64,000 nucleotides of DNA from Escherichia coli. Lineage in GTDB: Bacteria > Pseudomonadota > Gammaproteobacteria > Enterobacterales > Enterobacteriaceae. The DNA lies in the NCBI RefSeq assembly GCF_030384885.1, contig NZ_CP128613.1; one strand, given 5' to 3'. Numbering within the stretch: position 1 is the first letter of the stretch; each line of letters begins with the position of its first letter. This document shows positions 6,650-41,087 of the stretch, piece by piece. A program made the position numbers and the translations under genes. The notes under the pieces are model-generated. The model ran no database searches. It was not told the DNA's origin and worked only from the letters and a program-made list of their open reading frames with translations.

Positions 6650-6879
6650 AGGACGTTACGCCATTTTGAGGACATGAACGCGGCGCATTATCAGTGACTT
6701 TCGCGGCGCGGGCAAAGTGAAATATAGACTTTTTTTGATTTGCCTCCTGTATAGATTGCACTCAAAAAATAATTATCTTATATAATTCAGGCAAATACTT
6801 CCTTTTAGTAATATTGATGCTGGTGCGACCACTGAGGAATCTTTACAATTCACGCCCGTTTTTTTTAGAGGAGCGCAAC

Positions 6880-9441: not shown

Positions 9442-9822
9442 TTTAAACTCCTCAGGTATCCCTGCTAATATCGAAATGTGCATTAATGATAATTTCAGCC
9501 TGTTAATAAAATGACGAGATATCATTAAAGACAAATGCATAGCATAACTATAGCTGGGTTTACTTTGCCGAGTGCCACTTTTCAGCGTTCAAAAGGCCAT
9601 GGTAAATAAATATTTATCCTAAGATTAATTCTTATTCTGTAGTTCTTTACAATTATCTTCCAGGGAGGGATTATTTTTCATTATTGGTAAAAGACCGGAT
9701 AGTCTCGGCGTTTAAAATCAGCGAACATATAATTATTATTGTTTTATATCGTCGTAAATATGTCTTTCAGACATGTATCGTTTATTTTGTAACAAACAAT
9801 TCAAAAATATCATAGGTTATTT

Positions 9823-11430
9823 ATGAAAGCAATTCATAATCTGATTGGAAACAACTCCTTAAGCCATGAATATAAGCATTCAGATAAAGTTAACAATCAT
9901 CAACACCATGGCAAGGTTGATAAAAAACATCTTTCAAAGACAGTTGAAGTTAATATACTGGATAAATTTTCGCAAATAGGTAACAATGCAGGCCTGCATA
10001 TCATCTATTTCCTGCAATATGGTCACTGGAATGTAAATGACTATTTTCATCAGACGGTGAAAACATCGCTTTACAATAGTGAACCTTCTATAGATATCCA
10101 AGAATATAATAGTTTCGCCAACATGGATACTGACACGTTTATCTTTACAATTATACCAGACAATAACCATGTGTTAAAATTATCATCTCCCATAACCGTT
10201 ACGATTGAGCGTAGGGATGGTTATTATTTTATTAATTTCTCCGGAGATAAATCAGATATAATTTATAAAGTTGATGGGCTTTCTATCATATCCGAAAATT
10301 TCTTTACTCTTCTTAGCGGTAATTTTAAACCTGACTGGCGTTGGGATGTCTCTACTGAGAACCTCACTAAGGAAAAGTTTGATAACTATGTTAAATCTGT
10401 GTTCTCAGAAATAGATTTTTATAAACACTGTGGTGTGATTAACCCACAAAATATGAACACGGCTTATTTTGGCGATACAGATGGAAGAGTAGGCGCTATA
10501 CTTTATGCATTGCTCGTTTCAGGGCATATAGGCATCCGGGAAGAGGGGGGGAGTTTAATATGTGAATTATTAAATCACGAAAATATGGCTTCATCTGCAT
10601 ACGAAAAGAAAAAAATGGGAGAGCTCTACGCTTTATTAAATGCAAGAGACATGATCTTGAATGAGTTGCATAATCATGTTTTTTTAAAAGGCGATGCGAT
10701 TACTCCTTGTATTTTCCTTGGAGATCATACAGGCGACAGGTTTAGTACTATTTTTGGAGATCAATATATCCTTACTTTGCTAAATTCTATGCAAAATATG
10801 GAGGGTAATAAAGATAGTCGTATAAATAAAAATGTCGTCGTTCTGGCTGGAAATCATGAAATCAATTTTAATGGTAACTATAGTGCACGACTAGCAAATC
10901 ATAGACTCTCCGCCGGTGATACATATAACTTAATTAAAACGCTTGATGTTTGTAATTATGACCCAGAAAGGAAAGTTTTAACCAGTCATCACGGAATAAT
11001 AAGAAATGAAGAAAGTAAATGTTATTGTCTCGGTGCTTTGCAGGTTCCATTTAAACAGATGAAAAATCCTACTGATCCTGAGGAATTAGCTAATATATTT
11101 AATAAAAAACATAAAGAACATATGGATGATCCTCTATTCCATCTAATCCGAAGCAATATTATGAAACCCACTGCTTTATATACTGATTATTTTAATAACA
11201 CTACTGATTTCAGACCAGCACGTAATCATATCTTCATATGTGGAGAGAAACTCAAATGTGAAGACCCCAGCAAATACATTAGACAAAAATATGGCCATCA
11301 TGGGCTCGGGGTAGATCAGAATCAACAATTTGATAATGGTATTATGGGTCTAAATTCCCGGAAGGAAGTACGTGATAAAAATAATAAAATAATTTATTCA
11401 TCAGGGCTTAGTTGTTTTCAATCTCATTAA
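9823..11430 (+). CDS. yhiL: DUF4049-type protein, paralog of YhiJ (yhiL/yhiK position), intact 535 aa
   Basis: AT-rich ORF sharing motif blocks with the next ORF: YFGDTDGxVGA, FLGDxTGDRFS, VLAGNHE. Confidence 0.7.
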   Translation: MKAIHNLIGNNSLSHEYKHSDKVNNHQHHGKVDKKHLSKTVEVNILDKFSQIGNNAGLHIIYFLQYGHWNVNDYFHQTVKTSLYNSEPSIDIQEYNSFANMDTDTFIFTIIPDNNHVLKLSSPITVTIERRDGYYFINFSGDKSDIIYKVDGLSIISENFFTLLSGNFKPDWRWDVSTENLTKEKFDNYVKSVFSEIDFYKHCGVINPQNMNTAYFGDTDGRVGAILYALLVSGHIGIREEGGSLICELLNHENMASSAYEKKKMGELYALLNARDMILNELHNHVFLKGDAITPCIFLGDHTGDRFSTIFGDQYILTLLNSMQNMEGNKDSRINKNVVVLAGNHEINFNGNYSARLANHRLSAGDTYNLIKTLDVCNYDPERKVLTSHHGIIRNEESKCYCLGALQVPFKQMKNPTDPEELANIFNKKHKEHMDDPLFHLIRSNIMKPTALYTDYFNNTTDFRPARNHIFICGEKLKCEDPSKYIRQKYGHHGLGVDQNQQFDNGIMGLNSRKEVRDKNNKIIYSSGLSCFQSH

Positions 11431-11691
11431 AACTCCATGAATACTGTGGTATGTCTTATTAATCCTGAAAGTATTTCATAGGTTTTCTTAATCGATTGTA
11501 GAGGTATGTTCTGATAACGCCTCTACAATCTCTAGGGATTTTTTCTACTTTGAGATAAGAAATTTCATATTATGCCTTAAGGCTGAATGATTTGTGCAAA
11601 ATATAATTGTTTTTCCATCGAACATGAGGTGTATGTCATAAGATTAAATATTAACTACGTATTCCTCGCGGTGAATAGCATGAGGTAAAAA

Positions 11692-25862: not shown

Positions 25863-26590
25863 AACATCCCTCCGTTGATGGAAATAACCTGGCGGGTGAC
25901 GTAACCCGCAATATCAGACATTAAATAGCTGGCAAGCCCGGCAACTTCTTCCGCCTGGCCCATGCGTTTCATGGGGATCATCGACATTGCCTCTTTCAGA
26001 GCGCTCTCTTCCATTTCGATCATCCCGGTATCAATAAGCCCCGGCGCGATGCAGTTGACGGTGATTTTGCGCTTCGCGAGTTCGATAGCCAGTGCTTTTG
26101 TTGCGCCGATAATTCCGGCTTTGGCAGCGCTGTAGTTCACCTGGCCGCGATTGCCCATTACGCCGGAAACCGAGGACAGCGTGATGATGCGTCCACCCTG
26201 GCGTGCGCCGATCATCGGCATAATGCACGGCTGAATGACGTTGTAGAAACTGTCGAGGTTGGTGTGGATCACCGCATCCCAGTCGTCATCGCTTAAAGCC
26301 GGAAAAGCGGCATCGCGGGCGATCCCGGCGTTACTAACCACGCCGTACCAGGCACCGTGTTGCGCGATCTCGTGCTCCAGCACTTCCCGACACTGTTCGC
26401 GGTTTGCGACGTCGAAACTGAGCAAACGCCCGTTACCACCGTTGGCGACAATGGTATTCAGCGTTTCCTGAGCGCCTGTGGCGTCACGGTGATAGTGAAC
26501 GCCAATATTAAAGCCGTCTGCCGCCAGTTGGCAGGCGATGGCGCGACCAATGCCTTTGCTGGCACCAGTAACCAGAACTGAACGACTCAT
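25859..26590 (-). CDS. 3-oxoacyl-ACP reductase, SDR family (tentatively ApeQ-like)
   Basis: 243 aa; TGASKGIGRAIA cofactor-binding motif and YSAAK catalytic YxxxK. Confidence 0.85.
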   Translation of the reverse strand: MSRSVLVTGASKGIGRAIACQLAADGFNIGVHYHRDATGAQETLNTIVANGGNGRLLSFDVANREQCREVLEHEIAQHGAWYGVVSNAGIARDAAFPALSDDDWDAVIHTNLDSFYNVIQPCIMPMIGARQGGRIITLSSVSGVMGNRGQVNYSAAKAGIIGATKALAIELAKRKITVNCIAPGLIDTGMIEMEESALKEAMSMIPMKRMGQAEEVAGLASYLMSDIAGYVTRQVISINGGML

Positions 26591-27054
26591 CAGGACGCTC
26601 CTTGTTGAAACAGGGTGGTAAGTTCTTCCGCGGTCGGCTGGAAGGTGTTAATGCGGCCCGTTGCCTCGCCGTCGTTGATGCTGCACTCAAAACTACCGAA
26701 GCGTTCATCTTGCATCAGCAGTTTGACGGTAATGGTCAGCGTCTGGCCTGCGGGCAGAATGCCAGCGGCGCAAAGCAATTCACGCGCGCCCAGTACCATC
26801 CCTAACTCAATACTGTTTTTGCCCTGCTGGTGGCGATGCCAGCCAGACCAGACGCCGACGGTTTGCGCCATCAGTTCAAGGGCAAACCAGCCAGGGAGAT
26901 TGCCGTCCGGGTCGAGAAACGGTGCCAGTACACCACTGGGCGAAACCGTCACGCGGCACACGGCGCTGTCATCGCTGACGCTCACCACTTCTTCCAGCAG
27001 CAACATGGGCGCATCGTGGGGCAGATAAGCGCCGGGTGATAAATAGTGGCTCAC
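26590..27054 (-). CDS. hotdog-fold 3-hydroxyacyl-ACP dehydratase-like protein (tentatively ApeP-like)
   Basis: 154-aa ORF, 1-nt overlap with the reductase start; size and position fit a FabA/FabZ-like dehydratase. Confidence 0.65.
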   Translation of the reverse strand: MSHYLSPGAYLPHDAPMLLLEEVVSVSDDSAVCRVTVSPSGVLAPFLDPDGNLPGWFALELMAQTVGVWSGWHRHQQGKNSIELGMVLGARELLCAAGILPAGQTLTITVKLLMQDERFGSFECSINDGEATGRINTFQPTAEELTTLFQQGAS

Positions 27055-28229
27055 GAAACCCTCCCGAGCAGAATGCTGGCGTTATTGCCGCCAAAGGCGA
27101 AGGAATTGGACAGGATCACCGGACGTGCCAGCGGCTGTGGTTTTTCGATAATGCCGCACGGTGGCAGCGTGGGATCGCGTGGCGACAGGCTGAAGTCCTG
27201 AGCGGGCAGCGGTAAATCACGCTGTAAGATCAACATACTGATTGCCGCCTCGGTAATGCCCGCCGCGCCCAGCGTGTGTCCGGTCAAATGTTTGGTGGAG
27301 CTGCACGGTACGCGTTCGCCAAACAGGGCGTTAACCACTATTGATTCAATCTGGTCGTTGAGTTGTGTGGCGGTGCCGTGCAGGTTGATATAGCCGACGT
27401 CATCTGGCGTAAGCTGCGCATCGGTCAGCGCCTGGTTAATAGCGCGGATTGCCCCTTCGCCCTGCGGATGCGGGGCCGAAATATGGTAAGCGTCGCTCGA
27501 TTCACCAACGCCCAGTAACGCGATGGGCTGCGGTTCACGGGTCAGCAGCATTAGCCCCGCGCCTTCGCCAATGGTGATGCCCGCACGGTCACGACCAAAC
27601 GGCTGACATAAGGTTGGCGACAGCGATTCGAGGCTGTGAAAACCGTTAATTGGCATCCGGCTCAGGGTGTCTGCGCCACCCACAATGGCGGCATCGACCA
27701 GCCCCGCTTCGATAAGCCTGCGCCCGCTGATCATCGCTCTGGCGCTGGAAGAGCAGGCGGTTGAAAGAGTATATGCCGGGCCGTCGAGCGCCAGCCAGTG
27801 GCTGAGAAAACGCGACGGATCGCCGAGTTCCTGCTGCGCGTAGTGCCATGTGGTGCTTGGCTGCCCGTGGGTGCGCAGGTTAACGTGCGTGTCGCCTTCA
27901 TGCAGGCCGGAGGTGCTGGTGCCAAGCACAATCGCAATGCGCTCGCGGCCATATTTTGCGATGGCGTCATCAACCTGCGGCTGGATCTGCGCCAGCGCCG
28001 CCAGCAGGATCTGATTGTTGCGCGAGCGGTGCGCAGCGAATTTTTCCGGGATAAGCGGAAGCTCGCCATCCACGCCAGCCAGGACCGCCTGCGGATGCCC
28101 CTGCAACCAGCCTGCGCGTGGGCGCATTCCGGGAGCAACACCGCGAGTCAGGTTGGCTGCGATCTCATCAAGATTATTTCCCAGGGCGTTGATCATGCCA
28201 ACGGCGGAAATATAAATCATATTAGTCAC
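27051..28229 (-). CDS. beta-ketoacyl synthase (tentatively ApeO-like)
   Basis: 392 aa; Cys in STACSSS, His motifs LHGTATQ and TGHTLGAAG. Confidence 0.85.
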   Translation of the reverse strand: MTNMIYISAVGMINALGNNLDEIAANLTRGVAPGMRPRAGWLQGHPQAVLAGVDGELPLIPEKFAAHRSRNNQILLAALAQIQPQVDDAIAKYGRERIAIVLGTSTSGLHEGDTHVNLRTHGQPSTTWHYAQQELGDPSRFLSHWLALDGPAYTLSTACSSSARAMISGRRLIEAGLVDAAIVGGADTLSRMPINGFHSLESLSPTLCQPFGRDRAGITIGEGAGLMLLTREPQPIALLGVGESSDAYHISAPHPQGEGAIRAINQALTDAQLTPDDVGYINLHGTATQLNDQIESIVVNALFGERVPCSSTKHLTGHTLGAAGITEAAISMLILQRDLPLPAQDFSLSPRDPTLPPCGIIEKPQPLARPVILSNSFAFGGNNASILLGRVS

Positions 28230-28806
28230 CTAAGTATTGAATGGTGATGTGGTATTTAAAGACATGCTGCTCAATGCTGATTGGCACGCGTTTTCCTTTG
28301 CGATTCAAATAAGTGATTTCCGTGACCAGTTTGCCACTGGCGTTACGCAGTTCGCGTTTGTCACCGTTGTCGCGAAGCGTCCATCCAGCGGGGAGTTGCG
28401 GTTGCCAGGCGCTAATCGGCCAGTGGCTGAGCATCACGTCAGCCAGCACCTGACTTGCTGGCGGCAATTGTGGGACGACGATGGATTGCTCGGCGCGTAG
28501 CCCTTGCGCATCGTAGGTCACCAGAAACAGACGAATGCCGACTGATGACAGTCCGGCAAGGGTGATTTTCTGGTCGTCGGCATTAAGCATCACCAACAGC
28601 GACTGGGTTTTGCCGTTGAAGCTTCCGGTCAACAGTTGCTGGGAATTGACGGCGGGCGATATCCCCGGCGCAGGCAGCGTGATGCGTGTGCCAGGTTGCA
28701 GCCACGCCTGCGGGCGTCCTTCCTGTTCCGGTTGCGAGTGGCTACAGCCGGTGAGGATAAGCGTAGCGGTCAGGGCGAATGCCCGCCAAAAGGTGGGTTT
28801 GATCAT
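28222..28806 (-). CDS. lipoprotein, DUF3261-like (tentatively ApeN-like)
   Basis: 194 aa with signal peptide and lipobox LILTGCSHS. Confidence 0.7.
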   Translation of the reverse strand: MIKPTFWRAFALTATLILTGCSHSQPEQEGRPQAWLQPGTRITLPAPGISPAVNSQQLLTGSFNGKTQSLLVMLNADDQKITLAGLSSVGIRLFLVTYDAQGLRAEQSIVVPQLPPASQVLADVMLSHWPISAWQPQLPAGWTLRDNGDKRELRNASGKLVTEITYLNRKGKRVPISIEQHVFKYHITIQYLGD

Positions 28807-31118
28807 TTTTTTGTTCTCTTTTTATCGGGCATAGCCAGCGGCGAAAGCAGGAAGGCGGTGAAAATACCGCTCACCAGCACAATGCCAAAACTGCTGATGG
28901 CCTGAGTGGCGCTGAATACCAGCATTCCCAGCGTCAGCAAGGTGGTGAGCATTGCCAGCGTGATCGCCAGTAGGGAAGTTAACGGTGTACCGCGCGAATT
29001 ACTGAAAAACAGCGTGTAGTTGATGCCGATGCCAAGCACCAGCACCAGCGCCAGCAGCGAAAAGAGATTCACCGCCTGCCCGCTCATCGCCAGCACTGCC
29101 AGACCGCAGCCCAGCGAAAGCACCGAAGGCACCAGGCTGATAAGCCCTTTGCGCCAGCCGAGGCGGGCCACTGCGCCGCAGGCAATCACTGCCAGCGCCA
29201 CCAGCAACAAACCGGTTAAGACGTGGCGGTAAAGTGCGAACAATTCATCAAAAGTGTTTTTGCGATCAACCCAGGCAATGCCCTGGTAATAGCTGGCTGT
29301 TTCCTGCAACAACGCGCTACTTTTAACCCCTTCAACCGGCACCAGTACGCCGCTTGCGCCGTTTTCCAGCGTCAGCCACAGCAGACGCCAGCCTTCACTG
29401 GCGGGGCTTGCCAGCCATTCATCGACCTTCACTGGCATGGCGTTGAGATCTGGTTTCAGCGCCGTCAGTCCGGCATTTTGCAGCGCTTTTGTTACCGTCG
29501 GGGCAGCCGTTTTCAGCAGATGTAAATCTTCCTCCTGCCGCGCCAGGGAGTTCAGCGGAATAGTGCGGTAGTTGCTGATAAGACGGTCTTTTTTCGCTTT
29601 CTCCAGCGAGGTGGTAAATTTCTCCAGCCGCCGCAATGTTTGCTGTGGCGAATCGCCGTAAACCACAAACCATTTTTGATCGACGCTTTGTCCGGTCAGG
29701 GCGGTAATGGCTTTTTCCTGCGCCAGAATATGCTGCGGCAGCGCCTGTAACTGCGAGATATCGTCATCGACGCGCAGCATTGACATCCCCGCCAGCGAAA
29801 ACAGCGCCAGCGCGACGGGCAGACCCCGCGACAGTTTTTTATTGCGCCGCCACGCCGCCAGCCAGCGCAGCATCAACGCCATCGCCGGAACCGGACGCAC
29901 CGGCAGGCCACGGCACAGCCACGGATGCCAGAACAGAACGGTCAGACAGGAGGCGCTCAACCCGACGGCGGCAAAAATCGCCATCTGGCGAATGCCGGGG
30001 AAGGGGGCGAGCATCATAATCAGATACGCCGCCACGGTGGTGAGCAGCGCCAGTAGCAAGGCATTGCGCACTTTCACCAGGCTTTGCCACGGCGAAACGT
30101 CATTGCCGTGCACCATCCGCTCGGTAAGGTAATAGAGCGTGTAGTCAGCGGAAATGCCGATAACGCTCATGCTCATCACCAGCGTCATCAGGTGTAATTC
30201 ACCGAAAATCAACAAGGTGGCGACCGTTCCCGCCAGCGCGCCAATGCCGATGGAAATCACGCAAAGCAGCAACGGGCGTAAAGAGCGGAACACCGCCACA
30301 ATCAGTAATATCACCCCCAGCAGCGTTGCCACGCCCAGGGTTGAGATATCCTGCTTCGCCTGTTGACTGGCGTAATCGCTGTAAAACACCGTGCCGCGCG
30401 AGAGCAACTGCGCCTGCGGATAACGCGTTTTCAGATCCTTTTCCAGTGTATTCAGGGTGGTGATCAGCTGGTGGGTTTGCTGCATATCAAACGACGATCC
30501 CGCCAGTTCGCCGTGCAGCAGATACCAGTAGTTGCCCTGGGGATCCTGTGTCACCAGCCAGCCGTCCATCAGCCGCAAACGCTGGCCATTTTTCGCCATC
30601 GCCAGCTGCGAGCCGCGCATTAACATCAGCGGATCATTTTGCAGCTCCTTACCGCTTACCCCGGAGAACGCAGAATAAAGCTGGGAGAGGATCCACTGCG
30701 CCTGCGCTTCGCCGCCGTTTTGCAGGCGCGTGCGGGTGTCGGGGTCAATCAGGCCGTTACGATGCTGCCAGAAAAACGCTCCCCACGCTTGCTGGCTGGC
30801 GGCATCCATTGGCCCTTTAACGTCGCCGAGCGCAGCGGATTTTTGCAGCAGCGTCAGCCATTCCTGAGCCACACTGGGATTAGCCTCTTTACCGGGGCTG
30901 ACCAGCCACACCAGTTGGCGGTCCAGACGCTGCATAAAGCCGTCATTCAGCGCCGGGGGAATATCGCCCATCGCCTGTTTGGGTAACATAGCCAGCACGC
31001 TACTGTTCAGTCGTGATTGCGGCAGCAGGATCAGCAACGCCGCCGCCATGACCAGGCAGATGATCACCCATAACAGCGCCGGGCGTTTACTGGGCGGCAA
31101 AACGTTGGCGTTCGTCAT
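28803..31118 (-). CDS. MMPL/RND-superfamily membrane exporter (tentatively ApeM-like)
   Basis: 771 aa with two blocks of TM helices separated by large soluble domains. Confidence 0.8.
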   Translation of the reverse strand: MTNANVLPPSKRPALLWVIICLVMAAALLILLPQSRLNSSVLAMLPKQAMGDIPPALNDGFMQRLDRQLVWLVSPGKEANPSVAQEWLTLLQKSAALGDVKGPMDAASQQAWGAFFWQHRNGLIDPDTRTRLQNGGEAQAQWILSQLYSAFSGVSGKELQNDPLMLMRGSQLAMAKNGQRLRLMDGWLVTQDPQGNYWYLLHGELAGSSFDMQQTHQLITTLNTLEKDLKTRYPQAQLLSRGTVFYSDYASQQAKQDISTLGVATLLGVILLIVAVFRSLRPLLLCVISIGIGALAGTVATLLIFGELHLMTLVMSMSVIGISADYTLYYLTERMVHGNDVSPWQSLVKVRNALLLALLTTVAAYLIMMLAPFPGIRQMAIFAAVGLSASCLTVLFWHPWLCRGLPVRPVPAMALMLRWLAAWRRNKKLSRGLPVALALFSLAGMSMLRVDDDISQLQALPQHILAQEKAITALTGQSVDQKWFVVYGDSPQQTLRRLEKFTTSLEKAKKDRLISNYRTIPLNSLARQEEDLHLLKTAAPTVTKALQNAGLTALKPDLNAMPVKVDEWLASPASEGWRLLWLTLENGASGVLVPVEGVKSSALLQETASYYQGIAWVDRKNTFDELFALYRHVLTGLLLVALAVIACGAVARLGWRKGLISLVPSVLSLGCGLAVLAMSGQAVNLFSLLALVLVLGIGINYTLFFSNSRGTPLTSLLAITLAMLTTLLTLGMLVFSATQAISSFGIVLVSGIFTAFLLSPLAMPDKKRTKK

Positions 31119-31692
31119 CGGTCAGTTGCGCTGGCGTCAGTTGATGTTGGGTAAGAGCGATATCGGTGCGATCGTCCTGTTTATCATTAAGCTGAATGCT
31201 CTCCAGATAGGTTTGCCCGGCGAGATCGATGGTATTGAAAATTTTATCCAGCGGCGTGGTGGTCGGCGTCAGGCGCAGCGTCCAGCGGCCTTCGCCTTTG
31301 TCAGCAAATTCGACGCGGAAGTTTTGTTCCAGCACTTTGCGATCGGCCTGGAACAGCGCGCGCAGCAGGTGGTTAAACTGGAACATCTGCGGGTTATTTT
31401 CTGCCGTGATGATTTGTGGCGGCTGACCGTTGATCACCTGCACCATGCGTTTATCGTCCAGCAATAGCTGCATGGGAAATGGTGAGGTTTGATCCCACAA
31501 TAACCCCTGGTCGCGGGCGATCAACATCTGGCCCTGAGATCGCAGCGGCTGCGGCAGATCTTTAATCGTCCGGGTTTGATCAAAATGGGCGCGGATCACC
31601 GGCTGTTCGGTAAAGCGTTGCTGAAGATCGTCCAGGGTCAGGGCGCTCACAAACGGGCTAATCAGCAGCGCCAGCAGCGGTAAAAATTTCAT
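31087..31692 (-). CDS. LolA-like periplasmic lipoprotein-carrier protein (tentatively ApeL-like)
   Basis: 201 aa with signal peptide MKFLPLLALLISPFVSA; start overlaps the upstream stop (ATGA). Confidence 0.65.
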   Translation of the reverse strand: MKFLPLLALLISPFVSALTLDDLQQRFTEQPVIRAHFDQTRTIKDLPQPLRSQGQMLIARDQGLLWDQTSPFPMQLLLDDKRMVQVINGQPPQIITAENNPQMFQFNHLLRALFQADRKVLEQNFRVEFADKGEGRWTLRLTPTTTPLDKIFNTIDLAGQTYLESIQLNDKQDDRTDIALTQHQLTPAQLTDDERQRFAAQ

Positions 31693-32111
31693 GGTTTGAC
31701 TCCCATGCGTTCAAACAGAATATCGGGGCTGACAAAGCACAGTTCGCGGCTTTGCTCGTCGACCGCGACCTGAATGGTGTATCCGGTGGTGGCGCGTTTG
31801 CCCGTTTCGGCATCGAAAATCTGATAGCCAATTCGCAGGCGGTTTTCGAACTCTTCGATATGCGCACGCACGCGGATGCGTTGCTCAAAGGTGAGGGCGT
31901 GGCGATATTTCACCCGCGCATCGACCACTGGCCACAAATAACCCGACTCTTTCATCTGCCGATAGCCGTAATTGAACTGGTTGAGCAGCGCCTCGCGGGC
32001 CACTTCAAAGTAGCGAAAATAGTTACCGTGCCAGGCCACGCCCATCATATCGACGTCGTGAAATGGAATGATCAGCTCGACTTCAGCGGTAAATCGGGGA
32101 TCGTTAAGCAC
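31689..32111 (-). CDS. hotdog-fold acyl thioesterase, 4HBT/YbgC-like (tentatively ApeK-like)
   Basis: 140 aa; PFHDVDMMGVAWHGNYFRYFE resembles the 4HBT active-site region. Confidence 0.75.
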   Translation of the reverse strand: MLNDPRFTAEVELIIPFHDVDMMGVAWHGNYFRYFEVAREALLNQFNYGYRQMKESGYLWPVVDARVKYRHALTFEQRIRVRAHIEEFENRLRIGYQIFDAETGKRATTGYTIQVAVDEQSRELCFVSPDILFERMGVKP

Positions 32112-32114
32112 CCT

Positions 32115-33791
32115 TTACTCCTTGTCCTGGACTTCCGGCAGTTGCCAGAAATCGAAAAAATTAAACCAGTCGAGGGGCGACTGGAGCGCGTGATGTTCCA
32201 GACGCGCGGCGTAATGATCGATAGCGTTTTGCAGCGCCTGCTGGCGTTCGCCACGCGGCAACAGCAGCGGGTCGGCAAAGGTTTCGCAGTGAATATGCAG
32301 CTTGCCGTGCTGGCGCAGGGCGAAAATCAGATTCACCGGGCAGCGCAAAATAGAGGCGAGAATAAACGGCCCCTGTGGGAAGGGCGCAGGCTGGCCCATA
32401 AACGGACTCCAGCAGACGCGCCAGTCGCCGCCGCGTTGCGGGTTGATGGCGATGCGGTCAGCAACAATCGCCACCCATTCGCCGTTATCCAGCTTCTCTT
32501 TTAGCAGGATGGCGGTGTCCGGGCCGATATCCGTCACCGGGAGCAGGTTGATGCCTGCCTGCGGGGCCATCTCCTGCATTATCTGTTTAAAACGTTGGGC
32601 GTTTTCGCTAAACACCAGCGCGTTAATGGTTTTGTAGCCCTGAATTTTTGCCAGCGCCCGGCACACTTCCACATCGCCAAGATGCGAGGCCAGCAGCAAT
32701 TTGCCGCGCGGATCGCTGACGTTAAGTGCCGCTTCTGCGCCTGGTGCAAACAGCACATCACGCCCGAGTTGCAGCTCGCCGCGCCAACTGGCGATTTTGT
32801 CGAGCATGGCGTTGCCGAAACGTAGAAAGTGCTGATAGCTGTTGAGTTTTGCTGCCTGTGGTTGATGCTGGCGCACACGGGCGAGCCAGTCTTGCGACGC
32901 TTTGCGCGCCCGGCTGGCGGTGAGCCAGTAGACGCCCACCACCGGGTAAAGCAGCGCGGTAAACGCCGTTCTTCCCAGCAGGCGCCAGACCAGCAGCATC
33001 AGGCGCATTCCCCATAATCCTTTCACTTCGCTCTGCCGCGCCCAGTGGCTGGAAGAGTGGCGCATCAGCAGCGAAGGAATACGCGGCAACATGCCGAAAA
33101 ACAGGCGCGTGTGCATGAGCGAGATGCGGACGTTATCTTTCAGGGCATCAAAGTGCGAAAGCCCGTCCAGCGGATAGGTGACGCGAGTCGGCACGAAATA
33201 GCTGGTGTTTCCCTGCCAGTAGAGGCGCACCATCACTTCGGTGTCGAAATCCATCCGCTTGCCGATGGTGGCGTGTTTTGCCAGTTGCAGCGTTGGCGCA
33301 ACCGGATAAACGCGAAAGCCGCACATGCTGTCTTTCAGTTGCAGGGAGAGCGTTTCGATCCACACCCAGACGTGGGTGACCCAGCGCCCGTACAGCCGTG
33401 AGCGGGGGATGGAGTCATCGTAAATTGGCTGGCCGGAGATCAGTGCCGCAGGGTGTTGTTCAGCGAGTGCCAGCAGTTTGGGGATATCTTCAATCGCGTG
33501 CTGACCGTCGGCATCCACCTGTACCGCATGGCTGAACCCCGCGTCTGCCGCTGCCTGTAAGCCGCGCATTACCGCCGCGCCTTTGCCTGCGTTTTCTGCC
33601 AGGCGAATTAATGTCACGCCAGGCTGTTCGGCAACCAGATTATCCAGTTGCTGTTGCGTGGCGGCATCGCTGCCGTCATCCACCACAATACAGGGCAGAT
33701 TAAATGGCTTAAGACGCGCCAGCACGCCCGGCATCATTGCGCCGTGGTTGTAGCAGGGGATCAACACGCAGGGAGAAAAGTTTACCGACAT
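32115..33791 (-). CDS. fused family-2 glycosyltransferase / lipid-A-type acyltransferase (tentatively ApeJ-like)
   Basis: 558 aa; N-terminal VVDDGSD and QVDADGQH GT2 motifs; C-terminal half assigned by family recollection. Confidence 0.7.
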   Translation of the reverse strand: MSVNFSPCVLIPCYNHGAMMPGVLARLKPFNLPCIVVDDGSDAATQQQLDNLVAEQPGVTLIRLAENAGKGAAVMRGLQAAADAGFSHAVQVDADGQHAIEDIPKLLALAEQHPAALISGQPIYDDSIPRSRLYGRWVTHVWVWIETLSLQLKDSMCGFRVYPVAPTLQLAKHATIGKRMDFDTEVMVRLYWQGNTSYFVPTRVTYPLDGLSHFDALKDNVRISLMHTRLFFGMLPRIPSLLMRHSSSHWARQSEVKGLWGMRLMLLVWRLLGRTAFTALLYPVVGVYWLTASRARKASQDWLARVRQHQPQAAKLNSYQHFLRFGNAMLDKIASWRGELQLGRDVLFAPGAEAALNVSDPRGKLLLASHLGDVEVCRALAKIQGYKTINALVFSENAQRFKQIMQEMAPQAGINLLPVTDIGPDTAILLKEKLDNGEWVAIVADRIAINPQRGGDWRVCWSPFMGQPAPFPQGPFILASILRCPVNLIFALRQHGKLHIHCETFADPLLLPRGERQQALQNAIDHYAARLEHHALQSPLDWFNFFDFWQLPEVQDKE

Positions 33792-34165
33792 AGGCGGATC
33801 TTCCCGCTACTGGCGGTGTGGCGGGCGTCACCGTCGTGACGCTGATAACTAAAGCTCAGAATCTGGCGTTCTTCCTGCCAGCTAAGCGTGAGTGTGACGC
33901 GGTTATCCGGCAGCAATGGAGCCTGGAATTTGATGTTCTGAATGGAGTGAAAACGCCAACCGGGCGCGAGCAGGGCAAGCGCGTAACTCATCGCCCAGTC
34001 GATTTGTGCCACGCCGGGGAGTAATGGTTGTACGGCAAAATGACCGCGAAACCAGAACAGATCTGCCCTGAGATGCAAAACAATCTCAAGGTGATTCACT
34101 TGTGCCTGATGGCGCTCGATTTCATGGGGCTTCATGAAATAACTCCTGTAATTGCGCATAGACAC
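33782..34165 (-). CDS. hotdog-fold dehydratase (tentatively ApeI-like)
   Basis: 127 aa with FabZ-like GHFxxxPxxPGV-type motif (RGHFAVQPLLPGV). Confidence 0.65.
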   Translation of the reverse strand: MSMRNYRSYFMKPHEIERHQAQVNHLEIVLHLRADLFWFRGHFAVQPLLPGVAQIDWAMSYALALLAPGWRFHSIQNIKFQAPLLPDNRVTLTLSWQEERQILSFSYQRHDGDARHTASSGKIRLCR

Positions 34166-35483
34166 GCTTGTTCATACTGTTTACTGGCATTTCATCAATA
34201 ACGCGCCAGTAACGCGGAATAGCAACTGGCTCCAGCGTCGGGCGCAGTAATCGCCGCCAGGCCATTTCCTGGCTGTGCCCGCCGCCGTTTTGCCATTGCA
34301 GGCGAGCTTCGTCATCCAGCACCAGCAAAACGCCAATACTCTGACGCCCGCCGCGCGTAACGGGAACTGCCGCCGCCTCGTGAATACCGTCCAGCGCCAG
34401 CAGACGTTGTTCTACTTCCTGGAGTGAAATGCGTTTTTCTTCAATCTTAACGATGCGTCCGCGACGCCCCATCAGATGGAACTGGCCGTCTTCGCTAAAC
34501 TGCAAGATATCGTCGAGTAACAGGCCGCTATCTTCCTCCATCAGAGGTGAAAAGAGACGAAAGGCATCATCTTCGGCCTGGAACTGCATACCTGGAAAGG
34601 GCCGCCAGCGGCGTTGCTCTTGTTCGCGGTAACGCCAGGCGATGACGCCGGTTTCCGTGCTGCCGTAGATTTCATCAGGCCAGACGCGCAGCCAGCTCGC
34701 GGTGTGTTGTACGTCCTGCCACGGTAGTTCACCGCCAGCGGACAGAAGCACCTGAACGGGGGGCGGGGATAGCTGAGCATCCAGACGCTTCAAAAATGCC
34801 GGGCTGCTGATGAAGATATAGCGATGCTGATGACTCAACGCGGCAAACTGTTCGACATACCAGAGCATGGCGGCATGGAGCGGTAATCCCAGCGCCATGG
34901 GCAGGAAAACGCGAAAAGTCAGGCCGTACAAATGCTGCGGCAATACGGAACCGATGACACGACATCCGGCAAGACGTGCGCCTAATCGTTCAGCCAGCAG
35001 TTCTGCTTCACGGTCCAACAAACGAACAGGTTTAATCACCCGCTTCGGCTGCCCTGTGGAACCAGAGGTAAACAGCTCGATATAAGCGTCTGGCGCTATA
35101 GCGGCAAAGGTGAATGATTGTGTCGCGACTTGTGGGGAGCTTGCTACCAACTGCAATGAACCTTGGCAGTTAAGTTCGCTGTCGCTAAGCACACCATCGA
35201 ACAGTTCACGTTGCTCGTTAAGCTGGATGACGCGGTTATGCCCCGGAAGCACCGGTGTTTTTCCGGCGTGTAGCGTGGCGAGCAGGGCAACGATAAACAG
35301 ATAGCAGTCCTCAAAGCACAGCGCCCAGCGTTCACCTGGTTGTTGCTGTAAACGGCAGATAAGTTGCGAGACATCGTGACGCAAATCGCCCAGCGTCCAG
35401 GTGCTTTCGTCCAGCCACGCAATGGGCGTGTCATCAGAGCGTGGCGCAGTCAGCCAGCGTGCAAGCGGTAAGGTCTGCTTCAT
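34122..35483 (-). CDS. AMP-dependent synthetase/ligase (tentatively ApeH-like)
   Basis: AMP-binding motif LFTSGSTGQPKRV; start set at ATG 35483, overlapping the upstream stop (ATGA); ORF-track start 35522 is an alternative. Confidence 0.75.
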   Translation of the reverse strand: MKQTLPLARWLTAPRSDDTPIAWLDESTWTLGDLRHDVSQLICRLQQQPGERWALCFEDCYLFIVALLATLHAGKTPVLPGHNRVIQLNEQRELFDGVLSDSELNCQGSLQLVASSPQVATQSFTFAAIAPDAYIELFTSGSTGQPKRVIKPVRLLDREAELLAERLGARLAGCRVIGSVLPQHLYGLTFRVFLPMALGLPLHAAMLWYVEQFAALSHQHRYIFISSPAFLKRLDAQLSPPPVQVLLSAGGELPWQDVQHTASWLRVWPDEIYGSTETGVIAWRYREQEQRRWRPFPGMQFQAEDDAFRLFSPLMEEDSGLLLDDILQFSEDGQFHLMGRRGRIVKIEEKRISLQEVEQRLLALDGIHEAAAVPVTRGGRQSIGVLLVLDDEARLQWQNGGGHSQEMAWRRLLRPTLEPVAIPRYWRVIDEMPVNSMNKRVYAQLQELFHEAP

Positions 35484-36061
35484 GAGCGATCTCTTTTCAT
35501 CACCTGACGGCGCACCAGCCATTCACCAGCCATTAACGTCCCCATCAACAAATAAGCAATCATGCCGTTCCAGGCAGTCCATAACGACATATCGCCATGC
35601 AGCGCGGTAAAGAGGGCAATTCCGCCGTTGATGATGAAAAAGCCGCACCAGATTTGCGTGACGTGGCGGGTATAGCGCACGCCCTTTTCCGGGAGGTCTG
35701 GCTCCTGCAAACGCGCCAGCCGCTCAACAATTGGCATTGCCGACCACAGCGAACCGCCAAAAACCGCCAGCATTACCGCGTTAACCACTACCGGGTAAAA
35801 CAGCAGTAGCTGGTGCGTTTTCAACAGAAAGCTGGCAACACACAAGGCGATACCCACAACAGCGACGATTTGTGTGACGGCTTGTAGCGGCCCGGCCTGG
35901 CAACGAGTCTGGCGCAGGCGCAATAAAAGCAGCAGCGCCATCAGCGGCAACAGCCAGTGCAGGCCGTTATGTGCCAAACCAAGCCAAATCACAAACGGCC
36001 AGGCGAGCAGCAATAATCCAGTCAGCAGTTTAATAATCGGTAGCGAGCGAATGCCCGACAT
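35480..36061 (-). CDS. integral membrane protein of unknown function (tentatively ApeG-like)
   Basis: 193 aa with about 5 predicted TM helices; in-operon position. Confidence 0.6.
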   Translation of the reverse strand: MSGIRSLPIIKLLTGLLLLAWPFVIWLGLAHNGLHWLLPLMALLLLLRLRQTRCQAGPLQAVTQIVAVVGIALCVASFLLKTHQLLLFYPVVVNAVMLAVFGGSLWSAMPIVERLARLQEPDLPEKGVRYTRHVTQIWCGFFIINGGIALFTALHGDMSLWTAWNGMIAYLLMGTLMAGEWLVRRQVMKRDRS

Positions 36062-36065
36062 CAGA

Positions 36066-36317
36066 TCAGGCTTCTTGTAGCAGGCGTTCTACGGCCTCTA
36101 CGACATCCCGGACTGTACGCACTGCTTTAAACTCTTCCGGCTTGATTTTCTTACCGGTTTTCTTTTGCAGATGCACAATCATGTCAACGGCGTCGATGCT
36201 GTCCAGTTCCAGATCTTCGTACAGGCGCGCTTCAGGTTTGATGTCCTGCGGTTCGATTTCAAACAGCTTAACCAGCAGAGCTGAGACTTCCTGATAGACG
36301 GTTTGTTGTTCTGTCAT
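36066..36317 (-). CDS. acyl carrier protein
   Basis: 83 aa, acidic, with phosphopantetheine attachment motif DLELDSIDAVD. Confidence 0.85.
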   Translation of the reverse strand: MTEQQTVYQEVSALLVKLFEIEPQDIKPEARLYEDLELDSIDAVDMIVHLQKKTGKKIKPEEFKAVRTVRDVVEAVERLLQEA

Positions 36318-36328
36318 GATGGCTTTCC

Positions 36329-36586
36329 TCAGGCACGTTGTGCAGCAATAAAAGAGGCCAGAGTGGCGACAGAGAAAAAGTGCTGACGCATCTCTTCACT
36401 TTCCGCAGAAAGTACAACGCCATATTCATTTTTCACTGCCAGCCCCAGTTCCAGGGCATCGATAGAGTCCAGCCCTAAACCGTCGCCAAACAGTGGCGCG
36501 TCGGTATCGATATCATCAGGAGCCAACTCGTCCAGATTGAGGGTGCTGATGATGAGATTTTTAATTTCCAGATAAAGCGCTTGCAT
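36329..36586 (-). CDS. acyl carrier protein (second, tandem)
   Basis: 85 aa with attachment motif LGLDSIDALE. Confidence 0.85.
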   Translation of the reverse strand: MQALYLEIKNLIISTLNLDELAPDDIDTDAPLFGDGLGLDSIDALELGLAVKNEYGVVLSAESEEMRQHFFSVATLASFIAAQRA

Positions 36587-37382
36587 TATTTATTCCTGAG
36601 AGAGGTAAACAACCTTGTTGTAATTGAAGCAAAAGATGCCGGTTTAACTGCCTTGCTGCTAGCGCCGGTTCTTGTGAAGTTGCATCGTAAAATTTATTGA
36701 TTTCTACCCGCCCACGGACTTCAACCGTAAAAAGTGGCCTGGCAGGTGGAACGTCATACCATTTACTTTGTTTATCCAGCAGATGCTCGCTACAGCCGAT
36801 CGTCACGATGCGTAAATCGCTGGCGCAGCGCACGGCAATATTCGCCGCACCGCGCTGTAACGTCATTTTTTCACCAGGCTTCGTCCGCGTGCCTTCGGGG
36901 AAAATCAAGATAGTGTCGCCCTGTGCCAGTCGCTGTTGGCAACGGGGTAAGAGAGTTTCAGCTTCGCTGTTGATTAAATAATCTGCCGCCCGCACGACGC
37001 CGCCAAGAAAAGGATTTTTTAACAGCGCGCTTTTTACCAGGCAGTCAGTTTCTGGCATGACTGATGCCAGTAGTACGTAATCGATAAGCGTGGGATGATT
37101 AGCTACGACGAGGCAACCGCGTTCCTGACGTAAAATTTCAGCCCCATCAATACGATAATCCAGCACGCCAAGCCCTTTTGCGACTGTTAAAAACAGACGA
37201 AAACTGGCGGCAATGCTGCGACGCGCCAAACGACGGCGGCGGGAAGTGTTCCACACCAAAACTAACAGTACGTTAAACCACACCACAGAGAGTAGTAGTC
37301 CGCCGAGGCCAAACAGGGCAAAACACAACCCGGTCATAACCAGTCGCCATGTCCATTCCAGGCGTGACATCAGCTTACTCAT
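36561..37382 (-). CDS. PlsC-family lysophospholipid acyltransferase (tentatively ApeD-like)
   Basis: 273 aa; N-terminal TM helix, NHPTLID (HxxxxD) and FPEGTR motifs. Confidence 0.75.
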   Translation of the reverse strand: MSKLMSRLEWTWRLVMTGLCFALFGLGGLLLSVVWFNVLLVLVWNTSRRRRLARRSIAASFRLFLTVAKGLGVLDYRIDGAEILRQERGCLVVANHPTLIDYVLLASVMPETDCLVKSALLKNPFLGGVVRAADYLINSEAETLLPRCQQRLAQGDTILIFPEGTRTKPGEKMTLQRGAANIAVRCASDLRIVTIGCSEHLLDKQSKWYDVPPARPLFTVEVRGRVEINKFYDATSQEPALAARQLNRHLLLQLQQGCLPLSGINNASALSGN

Positions 37383-38125
37383 CTACGGCTCCAGCGCCAC
37401 TGTACGCGCTCACCAGGAAGTGAAAAAGCATCTGAATTTTGTAAATAGTGCTGTAAAAACAACATGCTTTGCGGCAGTGTTGTTTCATTGCCCGCAATGG
37501 CTGGCTGTGTTTCACATTGCCACTCATCGCCAGCTTCAATCACCAGCGCAACAGCATATGGCCAGGTCGGCATTTCTGCTGGGAGCTGCGGATGATAGAA
37601 CTCAGGTAGAAAGCCATCAAAATCGACCATCAACACACGCTGGTATCCCGCTTGTAGCAGGCTAAGCACTTCACTCAAACCTTGCTGGAAAGTGTCGCGA
37701 CCAGCCGAAAGCGATGACGAAACGATCGGCTGTTTGGCCGCAATGGTCAGGTTACCCACGGAAGAGTTGTGTACTGAAAGTGCAAAGTCGGTGGGGGAAA
37801 GCGCCTGTTCAGTTGCCAGTGCATGAACAATGCGGTAATTGCGCTCCAGTTCGCCATGACGACTGGTATACAAAACGGCGTCTGGCTGATGGCGGCGTAG
37901 CATTGCCAGGCCGCATTCAACAGCCAGTTTGCTGCCTGAACTGAGGCGGCGGGCGGTCATCATTGGCAGTTCACTTAATTTTGCCAACGGCGCGGCAGGG
38001 TCAATCGCCCACGGCTGGCGCGACCATGCTTGCCATTGCTGCGCTTCGCTAAGTCCAGGCGCCAGTGCCTGCCAGTCGGTAATATTTAATGTAAATTTCA
38101 TCAACGCGCGCCCGCGGTAAACCAA
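37379..38125 (-). CDS. ketosynthase-like protein without the recognisable catalytic triad; chain-length-factor-like partner (tentatively ApeC-like)
   Basis: 248 aa, start overlaps downstream-gene stop; no Cys/His KS motifs found by eye; alternative start at ATG 38101. Confidence 0.55.
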   Translation of the reverse strand: MVYRGRALMKFTLNITDWQALAPGLSEAQQWQAWSRQPWAIDPAAPLAKLSELPMMTARRLSSGSKLAVECGLAMLRRHQPDAVLYTSRHGELERNYRIVHALATEQALSPTDFALSVHNSSVGNLTIAAKQPIVSSSLSAGRDTFQQGLSEVLSLLQAGYQRVLMVDFDGFLPEFYHPQLPAEMPTWPYAVALVIEAGDEWQCETQPAIAGNETTLPQSMLFLQHYLQNSDAFSLPGERVQWRWSRR

Positions 38126-38141
38126 AATTATTAAGTGACGA

Positions 38142-39209
38142 TTATTTCTTTTGGCATATCAAAAGAGTATGCCCAACGCCTAAATTATCGTGGCGCTCTG
38201 CTACCTGAAATCCTGCTTTATTCAGATAGTCGTAAAATTTCTCTGCACTATAGAAACGGCTGTTACCGTTTGCCATGCAGGTGAAATAAAGTGAGGACGC
38301 GTTCAGGCTAAATGATGCTGCTTCAAACCGCTGCGCATCCCAGAACAACTCCATGATGCAAACTTTTGCGCCAGGCTTCATTACGCTGGCGATTTTGCTG
38401 AGTATGCTAATTATTTGTTCGGGTGAAAAACAGTCTAAAAATTGGCTCATCCACCAGATATCAGCCTCGCCCGGTAATGGGGCATCGCTTAGCATATCCA
38501 CCGCATGGAAATCTATGCGATCAGAAAAACCTGCATTCGCGATATTTTCTTTCGCTAGTACGATTTGTTGTGGCAGATCTAATAACGTCACGGCGATGTT
38601 TTCATTGTATTTGCAGCAACGCAAAGCCCACTTACCCGTATTGCCGCCTACATCGTACAATGTTGTGGGGTTGTTGGCGAATACATAAGGCAGTGCGGCG
38701 TTAAATGCGCCATCTGAATAGTAATGATCAAACGCAAACCAGCTTTCACGAGCGGCATCTGGTAATTGTGAAAGTGCGGGATATATCGTCGACCAGTCGC
38801 CAAATACTTTTAACCCGGACGGTTTTCCTTCATTGAGTGAATCGGCGAGGAAGAAGAGCCCCTGATAGCAGACATCCTGGGTGAAATCCATATTCACGCG
38901 AGTCATAGTGTCATGCAGGAGGTAATGACCGATTTTCGCCAGGTAATACATTCCCTCTTTACAGGTAATAATTCGCCCGCTTAAGCCCATATCTAACAGA
39001 ACGCTGGCCGCATATTCGTTGATATGGCTATGTTCGGTGATATCAGCCAGCGTTGCGCCATGTTTGCCTTGCCGATCCAGATATGAAAGTACACCCGCAT
39101 TACGTAGGCAGAGAGCTGTTTGAAAAAGCATGGGGGCAAAGGCAATGCGTTGAGCTTCGGTAATCGCATCCAGTGCGCTAAGAGAATCCTGTTCGTACAT
39201 GTTGGGCAC
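38142..39209 (-). CDS. class I SAM-dependent (O-)methyltransferase (tentatively ApeB-like)
   Basis: 355 aa; glycine-rich SAM-binding motif VGGNTGKWA. Confidence 0.75.
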   Translation of the reverse strand: MPNMYEQDSLSALDAITEAQRIAFAPMLFQTALCLRNAGVLSYLDRQGKHGATLADITEHSHINEYAASVLLDMGLSGRIITCKEGMYYLAKIGHYLLHDTMTRVNMDFTQDVCYQGLFFLADSLNEGKPSGLKVFGDWSTIYPALSQLPDAARESWFAFDHYYSDGAFNAALPYVFANNPTTLYDVGGNTGKWALRCCKYNENIAVTLLDLPQQIVLAKENIANAGFSDRIDFHAVDMLSDAPLPGEADIWWMSQFLDCFSPEQIISILSKIASVMKPGAKVCIMELFWDAQRFEAASFSLNASSLYFTCMANGNSRFYSAEKFYDYLNKAGFQVAERHDNLGVGHTLLICQKK

Positions 39210-39268
39210 AACCTGTTAAGAGGGAATTAAATTATTATCGGACCGAAGCGGCCCGACTTTAGGGGAAA

Positions 39269-39658
39269 TTACAAATCTGCGCCAGCCGACAAATTCAGTT
39301 GAATATCTTTGTCGAGATTGCGGACCCAGCGATTATAGTTTTTATGAATTTGTCCGCCTGATGCTTGCAGGTTCTGACTATTTTCATAATTGATATCGTA
39401 GCTGGATGCCGTGTAGTTAATGCGAATTTCGGCTGAATGATCGCGTGACTGTTGACGTGCTTTAATTACGCCTTGTCCGGCTTCGGACATAATCCATTTG
39501 CGTTCAACGCCAGCTTTCAGAATCGCTTTTTTCACTTGTTCCGGGGTATGACCAGCGCTGACGGTTGAGTGAACCTGATCAATTGGCGCAGTACGCGCGC
39601 AACCCGCTAAAGCACCCACAACAGCAATAGCCGCAAACCATTTCATGTAATGTCTCAT
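39269..39658 (-). CDS. small lipoprotein, first gene of the cluster transcription unit
   Basis: 129 aa; signal peptide with lipobox LAGC; lower GC than the downstream genes. Confidence 0.55.
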   Translation of the reverse strand: MRHYMKWFAAIAVVGALAGCARTAPIDQVHSTVSAGHTPEQVKKAILKAGVERKWIMSEAGQGVIKARQQSRDHSAEIRINYTASSYDINYENSQNLQASGGQIHKNYNRWVRNLDKDIQLNLSAGADL

Positions 39659-39988
39659 TAGAATCCCATTAAAGTATTGTTTTTACGAGTAAAGCAAGAT
39701 TTAACTGTAATTGCTGGCATCACTATTCTTTATTTAGCGAAAAAATTACTTGTGAGATAAGTCAGTAAGTGCACATCAGAGTAAAAATTTCTGAAATGAC
39801 TAAATTACTGCCAGCGGGGACCAACTATAAGTGAGTGAGAAAAATGAGGCAATAAAAATAACAGATTGTTATCAGTGCATTCTTTGAGAGGGATTTAATC
39901 GCTATTCGGCGTTTATATATATTTGACTTAAGGAATGGTTTTTATAAATTAATTGTCTGAATAATGTTTCTTCATTTCCTCAAATCAA
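39659..39988 (-). promoter_or_regulatory. AT-rich putative promoter/regulatory region of the biosynthetic cluster
   Basis: About 330 bp non-coding, very AT-rich (TTTATATATATTTGACTTAAGG), between the yhhT terminator and the first cluster gene. Confidence 0.4.
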
Positions 39989-40017
39989 ATGGCCACTGTT
40001 AGATAAACGGTGGCCAT
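39989..40017 (-). terminator. candidate yhhT terminator hairpin
   Basis: ATGGCCAC-n13-GTGGCCAT stem 20 bp past the yhhT stop, followed on the minus strand by TTGATTTGAGG. Confidence 0.5.
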
Positions 40018-40037
40018 TGCCTGCTCAGGAGGTGCTA

Positions 40038-41087
40038 TTAACCTGGTAACCGACTTTTCGGTCTGCCCGGCCCCAGTAAGATCGCCAGTTTGCTACCGCC
40101 TTTGGTGGTTTCCATCCAGATTTTACACACGCTGGTTAATGGTACCGAAAGTAGCATTCCAACCGGGCCGAGCAGCCATCCCCAAATCAACAATGAAAGA
40201 AATACCACCATGGTGGACATCCCCAGGCGATGGCCCATCATCCGCGGTTCTAAAATATTGCCGATGACCATATGGACAACTAAAAACAATGCGCCGACCA
40301 GAATACATTCGTAAACGCCATTAAACAGCAGCACCTGAATCATTGGCGGTACGGCGGAAATTACCGCGCCGATATTGGGGACGTAGTTAAGCAAAAACGC
40401 CAGTACCGCCCACATCAGCGCAAACTGTACACCCATAAGTTCCAGCCCCAGCCAGACGATAATGCCTGTCCATAAACTTAGCAGTGTCTTCAATGCAAGA
40501 TAGTGCGAAACACCTTTTAAGGCGCGGTGTAGTCCGGCGATGTGAATCTGTGGATTATTCAACGCAAAACGCATTTTGTAAGGGACGTGGCGCACTTCAA
40601 ACAGCATGAAAACTACGGTCATCACCAGCAAAAGCACGCTCGCCATTGCCCCGGAAAGCCCGGTCATTAGCGCCGTGGTGAAGGTAACCACTTTTTCCGA
40701 GTCCATCCGCTGCAGCATTCGCTCCGGCGACATATGCAAATTAAGAAAAGGCAACATCTCCTGCAATTTAAAAAGCTTGCGCGTCAGCTCCTTATTAAAC
40801 TTCGGCAGCATAGAGATAAATTCGTTAAACGAAGCTGCCAGTACACCGACCAGTGCGGTAAGTGCGATCAGCATCACCACCACCACAATCGTAATTGCAA
40901 CGGGGCGTTGTACTCCGCGACGAATAAACCAGGTGACGAGCGGGTTGAGGACGATGGCAAAAAACAGCGCCAGTAACAGTTGCACAATGATATCTGCCGC
41001 TGCGTGAATGCCCGCGAGGATTACTACCAGCGAGGCCAGTTTAAGCAGAATGTGCATGCCCGTTTTATCGGGTTGAGGGGTTTCCAT
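40038..41087 (-). CDS. yhhT: AI-2E family (PerM-like) membrane transporter
   Basis: ATG at 41087 gives 349 aa (METPQPDKTGMHILL...); polytopic. Confidence 0.8.
   Translation of the reverse strand: METPQPDKTGMHILLKLASLVVILAGIHAAADIIVQLLLALFFAIVLNPLVTWFIRRGVQRPVAITIVVVVMLIALTALVGVLAASFNEFISMLPKFNKELTRKLFKLQEMLPFLNLHMSPERMLQRMDSEKVVTFTTALMTGLSGAMASVLLLVMTVVFMLFEVRHVPYKMRFALNNPQIHIAGLHRALKGVSHYLALKTLLSLWTGIIVWLGLELMGVQFALMWAVLAFLLNYVPNIGAVISAVPPMIQVLLFNGVYECILVGALFLVVHMVIGNILEPRMMGHRLGMSTMVVFLSLLIWGWLLGPVGMLLSVPLTSVCKIWMETTKGGSKLAILLGPGRPKSRLPG

Follow-up and report, generated by a model that had tools for sequence, protein, structure and literature searches.

Two adjacent genes on the minus strand of a 64,000-nucleotide stretch of the Escherichia coli chromosome (hereafter the window; its closest strain is 2013C-4282) are apeE and apeF, which encode free-standing acyl carrier proteins (ACPs) of an aryl polyene (APE) type II PKS-like cluster. 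The two proteins probably divide their labour, with ApeE holding the starter and growing chain and ApeF supplying malonyl extender units. Gene identity, motifs, cluster context and conservation were read directly in the present analysis. ApeE and ApeF are an already known and well-characterised pair in a well-known and widespread E. coli cluster, and the immediate value of the assignment lies in annotation: two open reading frames (ORFs) that in RefSeq bear no more specific labels than 'phosphopantetheine-binding protein' and 'acyl carrier protein' can now be assigned as apeE and apeF, and the surrounding 15.6 kb can be recognised as an intact APE cluster with its phosphopantetheinyl transferase gene. 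The cluster bears on the fitness of pathogens, as APE lipids confer protection from oxidative stress and favour the formation of biofilms (PMC8253772).

Two acyl carrier proteins of different sequence

The gene pair consists of the following features.

apeE, 36329..36586, minus strand: 85-aa acyl carrier protein; phosphopantetheine (Ppant) serine S41
apeF, 36066..36317, minus strand: 83-aa acyl carrier protein; Ppant serine S40

The ORF list places the two genes 11 nt apart, and an AGGA Shine–Dalgarno-like motif stands 5' of each. Both products match the Pfam PP-binding domain PF00550 above its gathering cut-off of 20.8 bits, ApeF with E=3.5e-13 (50 bits) and ApeE with E=3e-08 (34.2 bits). In NCBIfam they belong to different curated ACP families, each above cut-off: ApeE matches NF006617 (90.7 bits versus a cut-off of 70) and ApeF matches NF003757 (144.5 bits versus 65). 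Pairwise alignment gives 31% identity over 81 aligned residues. An initial annotation of this DNA had described tandem ACPs of 83 and 85 aa with clearly different sequences; both ORFs are present where it placed them, on the minus strand, both are PP-binding proteins, and the alignment and family assignments agree with its account of their divergence. It had also given their serine motif as DSID/DSLD. The serine motif does occur in both proteins, but both read DSID and neither reads DSLD. On re-inspection the conserved serine is intact in each: ApeE has D40-S41-I42-D43 in the context G34-D-G36-L-G38-L-D-S41-I-D, and ApeF has D39-S40-I41-D42 in the context L-E-L-D-S40-I-D. These serines align with S41 of Protein Data Bank (PDB) entry 9LS6 and S40 of 9L1V, respectively.

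Judged by sequence similarity, ApeF is much closer than ApeE to fatty acid synthase (FAS)-type ACPs. It scores 48 bits against TIGR00517, versus 26 bits for ApeE, and FAS-type ACPs in the PDB match it with E=5e-13 (1x3o, described generically as 'acyl carrier protein') and ~1e-9 (AcpM), versus only ~1e-3 for ApeE. The E. coli FAS carrier AcpP shares the four-helix PP-binding fold family, with its serine at the start of helix 2. AcpP is 23% identical to ApeF over 71 residues, and its match to ApeE is local and spans just 28 residues; its motif is DSLD, in contrast to DSID in both ApeE and ApeF.

Two antisense ORFs on the plus strand, 36142-36294 and 36338-36478, were set aside as spurious, as the strand facing them is strongly conserved coding sequence and they have no matches. 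Rfam likewise returned no match in or near the two ACP genes. A consensus promoter and terminator scan of 23500-40500 yielded 16 and 27 candidates, compared with 11.4±3.0 and 20.5±5.3 in shuffled sequence; with no excess over the shuffled level, these counts lend no support to the idea that the ACP genes are transcribed separately.

An intact aryl polyene cluster

apeE and apeF lie within an 18-gene, co-oriented and uninterrupted run, apeA–apeR (24633-39646, minus strand), that follows the gene order of E. coli CFT073. By its gene order and sequence, this run is the APE cluster known from CFT073 (Cimermancic 2014; Johnston et al. 2021, PMC8253772), and we use the ape gene names given for the CFT073 cluster in Table 1 of PMC8253772. 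The initial annotation had not identified it as this known cluster. The remaining genes, together with the adjacent acpT, are as follows.

apeA, 39269..39646, minus strand: small hypothetical protein or lipoprotein that opens the cluster (RefSeq; position as CFT073 c1204)
apeB, 38142..39200, minus strand: SAM-dependent methyltransferase (RefSeq 'methyltransferase')
apeC, 37379..38101, minus strand: ketosynthase chain-length factor (RefSeq 'beta-ketoacyl synthase chain length factor')
apeD, 36561..37382, minus strand: lysophospholipid acyltransferase (PF01553, E=1.3e-19; RefSeq; named ApeD in PMC8253772 Table 1)
apeG, 35480..36061, minus strand: 193-aa membrane protein, COG4648 family according to other E. 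coli records
apeH, 34122..35483, minus strand: AMP-binding acyl-ACP synthetase (Pfam AMP-binding, E=1.8e-14; RefSeq start)
apeI, 33782..34135, minus strand: dehydratase (RefSeq 'ApeI family dehydratase')
apeJ, 32115..33791, minus strand: glycosyltransferase/acyltransferase (RefSeq 'glycosyltransferase family 2 protein'; NCBIfam matches)
apeK, 31689..32111, minus strand: thioesterase (RefSeq 'acyl-CoA thioesterase')
apeL, 31087-31692, minus strand: LolA-like protein (RefSeq and NCBIfam)
apeM, 28803-31118, minus strand: MMPL transporter (RefSeq and NCBIfam)
apeN, 28222-28806, minus strand: DUF3261 protein (RefSeq and NCBIfam)
apeO, 27051-28220, minus strand: ketosynthase (RefSeq and NCBIfam)
apeP, 26590-27054, minus strand: dehydratase, ApeP-family (RefSeq and NCBIfam)
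apeQ, 25859-26590, minus strand: ketoreductase ApeQ/FabG2 (RefSeq and NCBIfam)
apeR, 24633-25862, minus strand: ketosynthase (RefSeq and NCBIfam)
acpT, 24044..24631, minus strand: 4'-phosphopantetheinyl transferase (NF007676 AcpT, E=3.7e-119, 395.4 bits, cut-off 174)

The window carries intact copies of the 18 cluster genes and of acpT, whose start codon lies 1 nt past the apeR stop. The ACP genes have the neighbours that the initial annotation had named, with the acyltransferase gene upstream (the last 26 nt of apeD are shared with the start of apeE) and the genes for the 193-aa membrane protein and the AMP-binding ligase downstream. Two enzymes resemble curated NCBIfam models while scoring under their cut-offs. 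ApeB matches the FlxJ family methyltransferase model with E=1.1e-142 and 475.1 bits against a cut-off of 560, which by sequence amounts to strong similarity and not to curated membership; ApeK matches the YbgC/FadM thioesterase model with E=1.4e-16 and 60.8 bits, just under the cut-off of 68.7. ApeG has no NCBIfam match. Among complete E. coli genomes, ~15% (824/5426) carry the APE cluster.

Orthologues in other E. coli strains

The CFT073 counterparts of the pair are c1200 (ApeE, WP_001148680.1) and c1199 (ApeF, WP_000132059.1), each 94% identical to the window protein with five substitutions. They share with the window pair their lengths of 85 and 83 aa, their DSID sites and the 18-gene order from apeA to apeR. 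An O157:H7 strain is closer still, at 98% identity for ApeE and 96% for ApeF, and there too the cluster adjoins acpT. These identities and the shared gene order establish the 85-aa gene as apeE and its 83-aa neighbour as apeF.

The strains differ in where the cluster resides. In the window (24044-40000) and in O157:H7 it occupies the acpT–yhhT interval, whereas CFT073-type strains have it within a pathogenicity island marked by an integrase and IS fragments, beside a two-partner-secretion hemagglutinin locus and without an adjacent acpT. One 18-gene APE cluster is thus found at two chromosomal sites in E. coli (the CFT073 copy is 18727-33748 of our locus L092), and the two versions differ by ~6-7% at the DNA level across the ACP genes. 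At 89%, H40 gave the poorest match within E. coli; it was considered as a divergent allele and rejected, as its assembly is frameshift-ridden.

Alignment of the window with its best match, NZ_CP027579.1 (E. coli 2013C-4282), shows 228 mismatches, of which 223 fall in 21-19762 (prlC to nikE) and 5 in the remaining 44 kb. This pattern looks like that of a close relative with a recombined left segment (1-19762). One of the five right-hand mismatches, at window position 36109, falls in apeF codon 70 and gives R here versus Q in the RefSeq strain. O157 and CFT073 likewise have Q at residue 70, as do 75 of the 76 ApeF sequences of full length (83 aa) taken from 80 species loci; the one remaining sequence has K, and A. 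baumannii ApeF has L. Within these sequences, Q70R is a private substitution of the window ApeF.

Conservation across Enterobacterales

A search covering one genome per species yielded 80 loci, all from Enterobacterales. The order apeD-apeE-apeF-apeG-apeH is kept in 79 of the 80, and in these 79 loci apeF starts 6-40 nt past apeE. The DSID motif is invariant across the species loci, in 80/80 ApeE and 79/79 ApeF sequences. ApeF and ApeD are both present in nearly every locus of this Enterobacterales sample, and Kluyvera and Serratia-like contigs show the same C-D-E(85)-F(83)-G(193)-H-I-J order as the window. At E≤1e-5 the ApeE family comprises at least 7,900 clusters.

Pairwise dN/dS values against the O157, CFT073-type, Serratia-like and Kluyvera alleles ranged from 0.04 to 0.2 for both genes, with ApeE versus the Serratia-like allele excluded because synonymous sites were saturated. 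Values in this range indicate that both genes are maintained by purifying selection.

The single exception to the conserved order is Enterobacter asburiae INSAq146 (locus L033, 9965-11490), in which apeE is joined directly to a truncated apeR and acpT, and apeF through apeQ are deleted. It is a degraded cluster with an internal deletion. This locus also places acpT directly 3' of apeR in Enterobacter.

Structural relatives and family hallmarks

In the PDB, the best match to ApeE is 9LS6 (E=1.2e-24, with a runner-up at only 5e-05) and the best match to ApeF is 9L1V (E=1.8e-19). These entries are NMR structures of A. baumannii ApeE and ApeF, respectively (Lee et al. 2025, PMC12624758). A. baumannii ApeE is about 56% identical to the window protein, and its hallmarks recur there: F33, the glycine-rich motif G34/G36/G38, S41, A44, G48 and F70. 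In the alpha1-alpha2 loop, L18-D19-E20 of the window ApeE occupies the site of the LED insertion of 9LS6. The lengthened alpha2-alpha3 loop carries S60-A61-E62 (SAE) where 9LS6 has NAE (the 'NAE lid'), and position 67 is R in the window versus K in A. baumannii. For ApeF, the residues that form the shallow cavity of 9L1V are shared at A43, F63, K64 and V66, and position 38 is L in the window versus V. The window ApeE thus combines orthology and ApeE-specific motifs with a position between apeD and apeF in the company of apeH and of ketosynthase/chain-length factor, ketoreductase and dehydratase genes, and the window ApeF combines orthology with cavity residues that show four identities and one conservative change.

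Xanthomonadin (XanC) and flexirubin clusters are like the APE cluster in using an aryl starter, in building the polyene with a type II PKS and in having ApeE-type motifs. They differ in their ACP complement: xanthomonadin clusters have a single ACP and lack a second (PMC8253772), and the flexirubin ACPs Fjoh_1089 and Fjoh_1101 are presumably non-adjacent, as their locus tags are 12 apart.

A proposed division of labour

The initial annotation suggested that the two ACPs serve different functions, such as loading of the starter in one case and elongation in the other. This corresponds to the current published model for ApeE and ApeF, in which the role of ApeF is still debated. The enzymatic steps proposed here are modelled on published orthologues, at 94-98% identity in E. 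coli and about 56% for A. baumannii ApeE. AcpT would convert both apo-ACPs to their holo forms, at S41 in ApeE and S40 in ApeF. ApeH would adenylate 4-hydroxybenzoate and load it selectively onto ApeE, which would then carry the aryl starter and, as it lengthens, the polyene during successive rounds of the ApeR or ApeO-ApeC ketosynthases, the ApeQ ketoreductase and the ApeI/ApeP dehydratases. The finished chain would pass from ApeE to the lipid-attachment enzymes ApeJ and ApeD. ApeF would be malonylated by the housekeeping FabD and supply malonyl extender units, a role that ApeE or AcpP could partly cover.

Published work on the orthologues points in this direction. As reported in PMC8253772, AcpT activates the two carrier proteins of O157:H7 EDL933, its cognate substrates (De Lay & Cronan 2006); by that account, the AcpT study addressed phosphopantetheinylation only, and biosynthetic roles lay outside its scope. 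In CFT073, an in-frame ΔapeE mutant makes no pigment, whereas ΔapeF makes partial pigment and yellow intermediates, and the peak of the mature APE lipid is found only in the wild type and ΔapeR (PMC8253772). The authors of that study describe ApeE as the ACP loaded in vivo with 4-hydroxybenzoate and suggest that ApeF may deliver malonyl units and be partly replaceable. In NMR titrations of the A. baumannii proteins, ApeH perturbs ApeE and not ApeF; A. baumannii ApeF binds FabD in vitro, malonyl-ApeF has been characterised, and the shallow ApeF cavity is described as fit for malonyl and unfit for long chains (PMC12624758). Those authors distinguish a starter ACP, ApeE, from an elongating ACP, ApeF.

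Several observations stand against this model or temper it. Pigmented intermediates are still made in ΔapeF, so a malonyl-shuttle role cannot be essential. Xanthomonadin-type clusters manage with one ACP. A preprint proposes a role for ApeF with a conjugated fatty acid, not malonyl delivery (bioRxiv 10.1101/2020.12.19.423268). The window ApeF itself has R70 where nearly all full-length homologues have Q.

Alternative roles for the pair

Whether ApeF is a malonyl shuttle or the carrier of a second acyl chain is a question already posed in the literature. The latter role, which we regard as possible but rather unlikely, would make ApeF a dedicated carrier on which the second APE-lipid chain, a conjugated fatty acid, is built by the same PKS machinery before ApeD transfers it to the sn-2 position of lysophosphatidylglycerol, leaving ApeE to carry the aryl polyene chromophore only. 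Grammbitter et al. put this role forward on the basis of the APE-lipid structures of X. doucetiae and of apeB-R deletions (bioRxiv 10.1101/2020.12.19.423268), and it would account for the CFT073 ΔapeF mutant, in which yellow intermediates without a mature lipid peak can be read as a defect in lipid assembly and not in chromophore synthesis (PMC8253772). Gene order is consistent with it, as apeF lies within two genes of apeD, with only apeE between, in 79/80 species loci, and so is the FAS-like character of ApeF. We could then tentatively picture ACP identity as the device that routes chains, with one set of ketosynthase, ketoreductase and dehydratase enzymes serving both an aryl polyene on ApeE destined for ApeJ and a conjugated fatty acid on ApeF destined for ApeD. 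The shallow cavity, which suits malonyl and not long chains, and the binding of FabD argue against this role (PMC12624758), and no acyl-ApeF species has been reported. Several of these data fit both roles: the ΔapeF phenotype fits a second-chain carrier as well as a malonyl shuttle, and FabD–ApeF binding and malonyl-ApeF would be expected under either role of ApeF. The co-occurrence of apeF and apeD likewise favours neither role, since nearly all of the sampled Enterobacterales loci have both genes.

Two further explanations would deny the pair distinct functions altogether. That ApeE and ApeF are redundant duplicates that raise flux, as tandem ACP domains do in PUFA synthases and some type I PKSs, is very improbable. 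X. doucetiae ApeH does load 4-hydroxybenzoate onto both ACPs in vitro, although ApeF only poorly, as reported in PMC8253772, and the defect of ΔapeF is only partial. However, a match to the near-identical tandem ACPs of such synthases was rejected: ApeE and ApeF come from separate genes, share less than a third of their residues and fall into different curated families, and their knock-outs are unlike. As the CFT073 single deletions differ, the pair is not fully redundant, contrary to the outcome that would have undercut the suggestion of distinct roles. In A. baumannii, moreover, ApeH interacts with ApeE only (PMC12624758), and each paralogue has kept its own motifs across 80 species under purifying selection. 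It is more improbable still that one of the two genes is a decaying or non-functional copy in the window strain. The private Q70R substitution in ApeF could be taken as a sign of decay, but position 70 is variable, with L in A. baumannii ApeF; both ORFs are intact with the DSID serine, both are preceded by ribosome-binding motifs, both show the low dN/dS range given above, and the remainder of the cluster and acpT are intact as well. We retain the division between a starter and chain carrier, ApeE, and a malonyl carrier, ApeF, as the preferred reading.

Further features of the cluster and the window

Gene boundaries in the cluster are compact, with overlaps of 1-32 nt between many genes, the apeD/apeE junction being one example. 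The longest ORF for apeH encodes 466 aa, against 453 aa from the RefSeq start, and extends 39 nt further upstream (35484-35522); the RefSeq start produces a 4-nt ATGA overlap with the apeG stop, an arrangement typical of translational coupling.

Gene content varies at the upstream end. apeB is absent from many Enterobacterales APE clusters, in up to 28 of 80 loci (L012-L091), a count that is an upper bound because some loci end short upstream, and apeA is also absent from some. Where apeB is absent, the aryl head groups are predicted to be unmethylated. In Kluyvera (L008/L009, 2483-3208), a gene for an iron-type ABC transporter lies directly upstream of apeC.

Elsewhere in the window, the sole Rfam match is the ES036 (CssrF) sRNA, which lies between uspB and pitA at 5005-5045 on the minus strand and scores 42 bits against a gathering threshold of 37.6.
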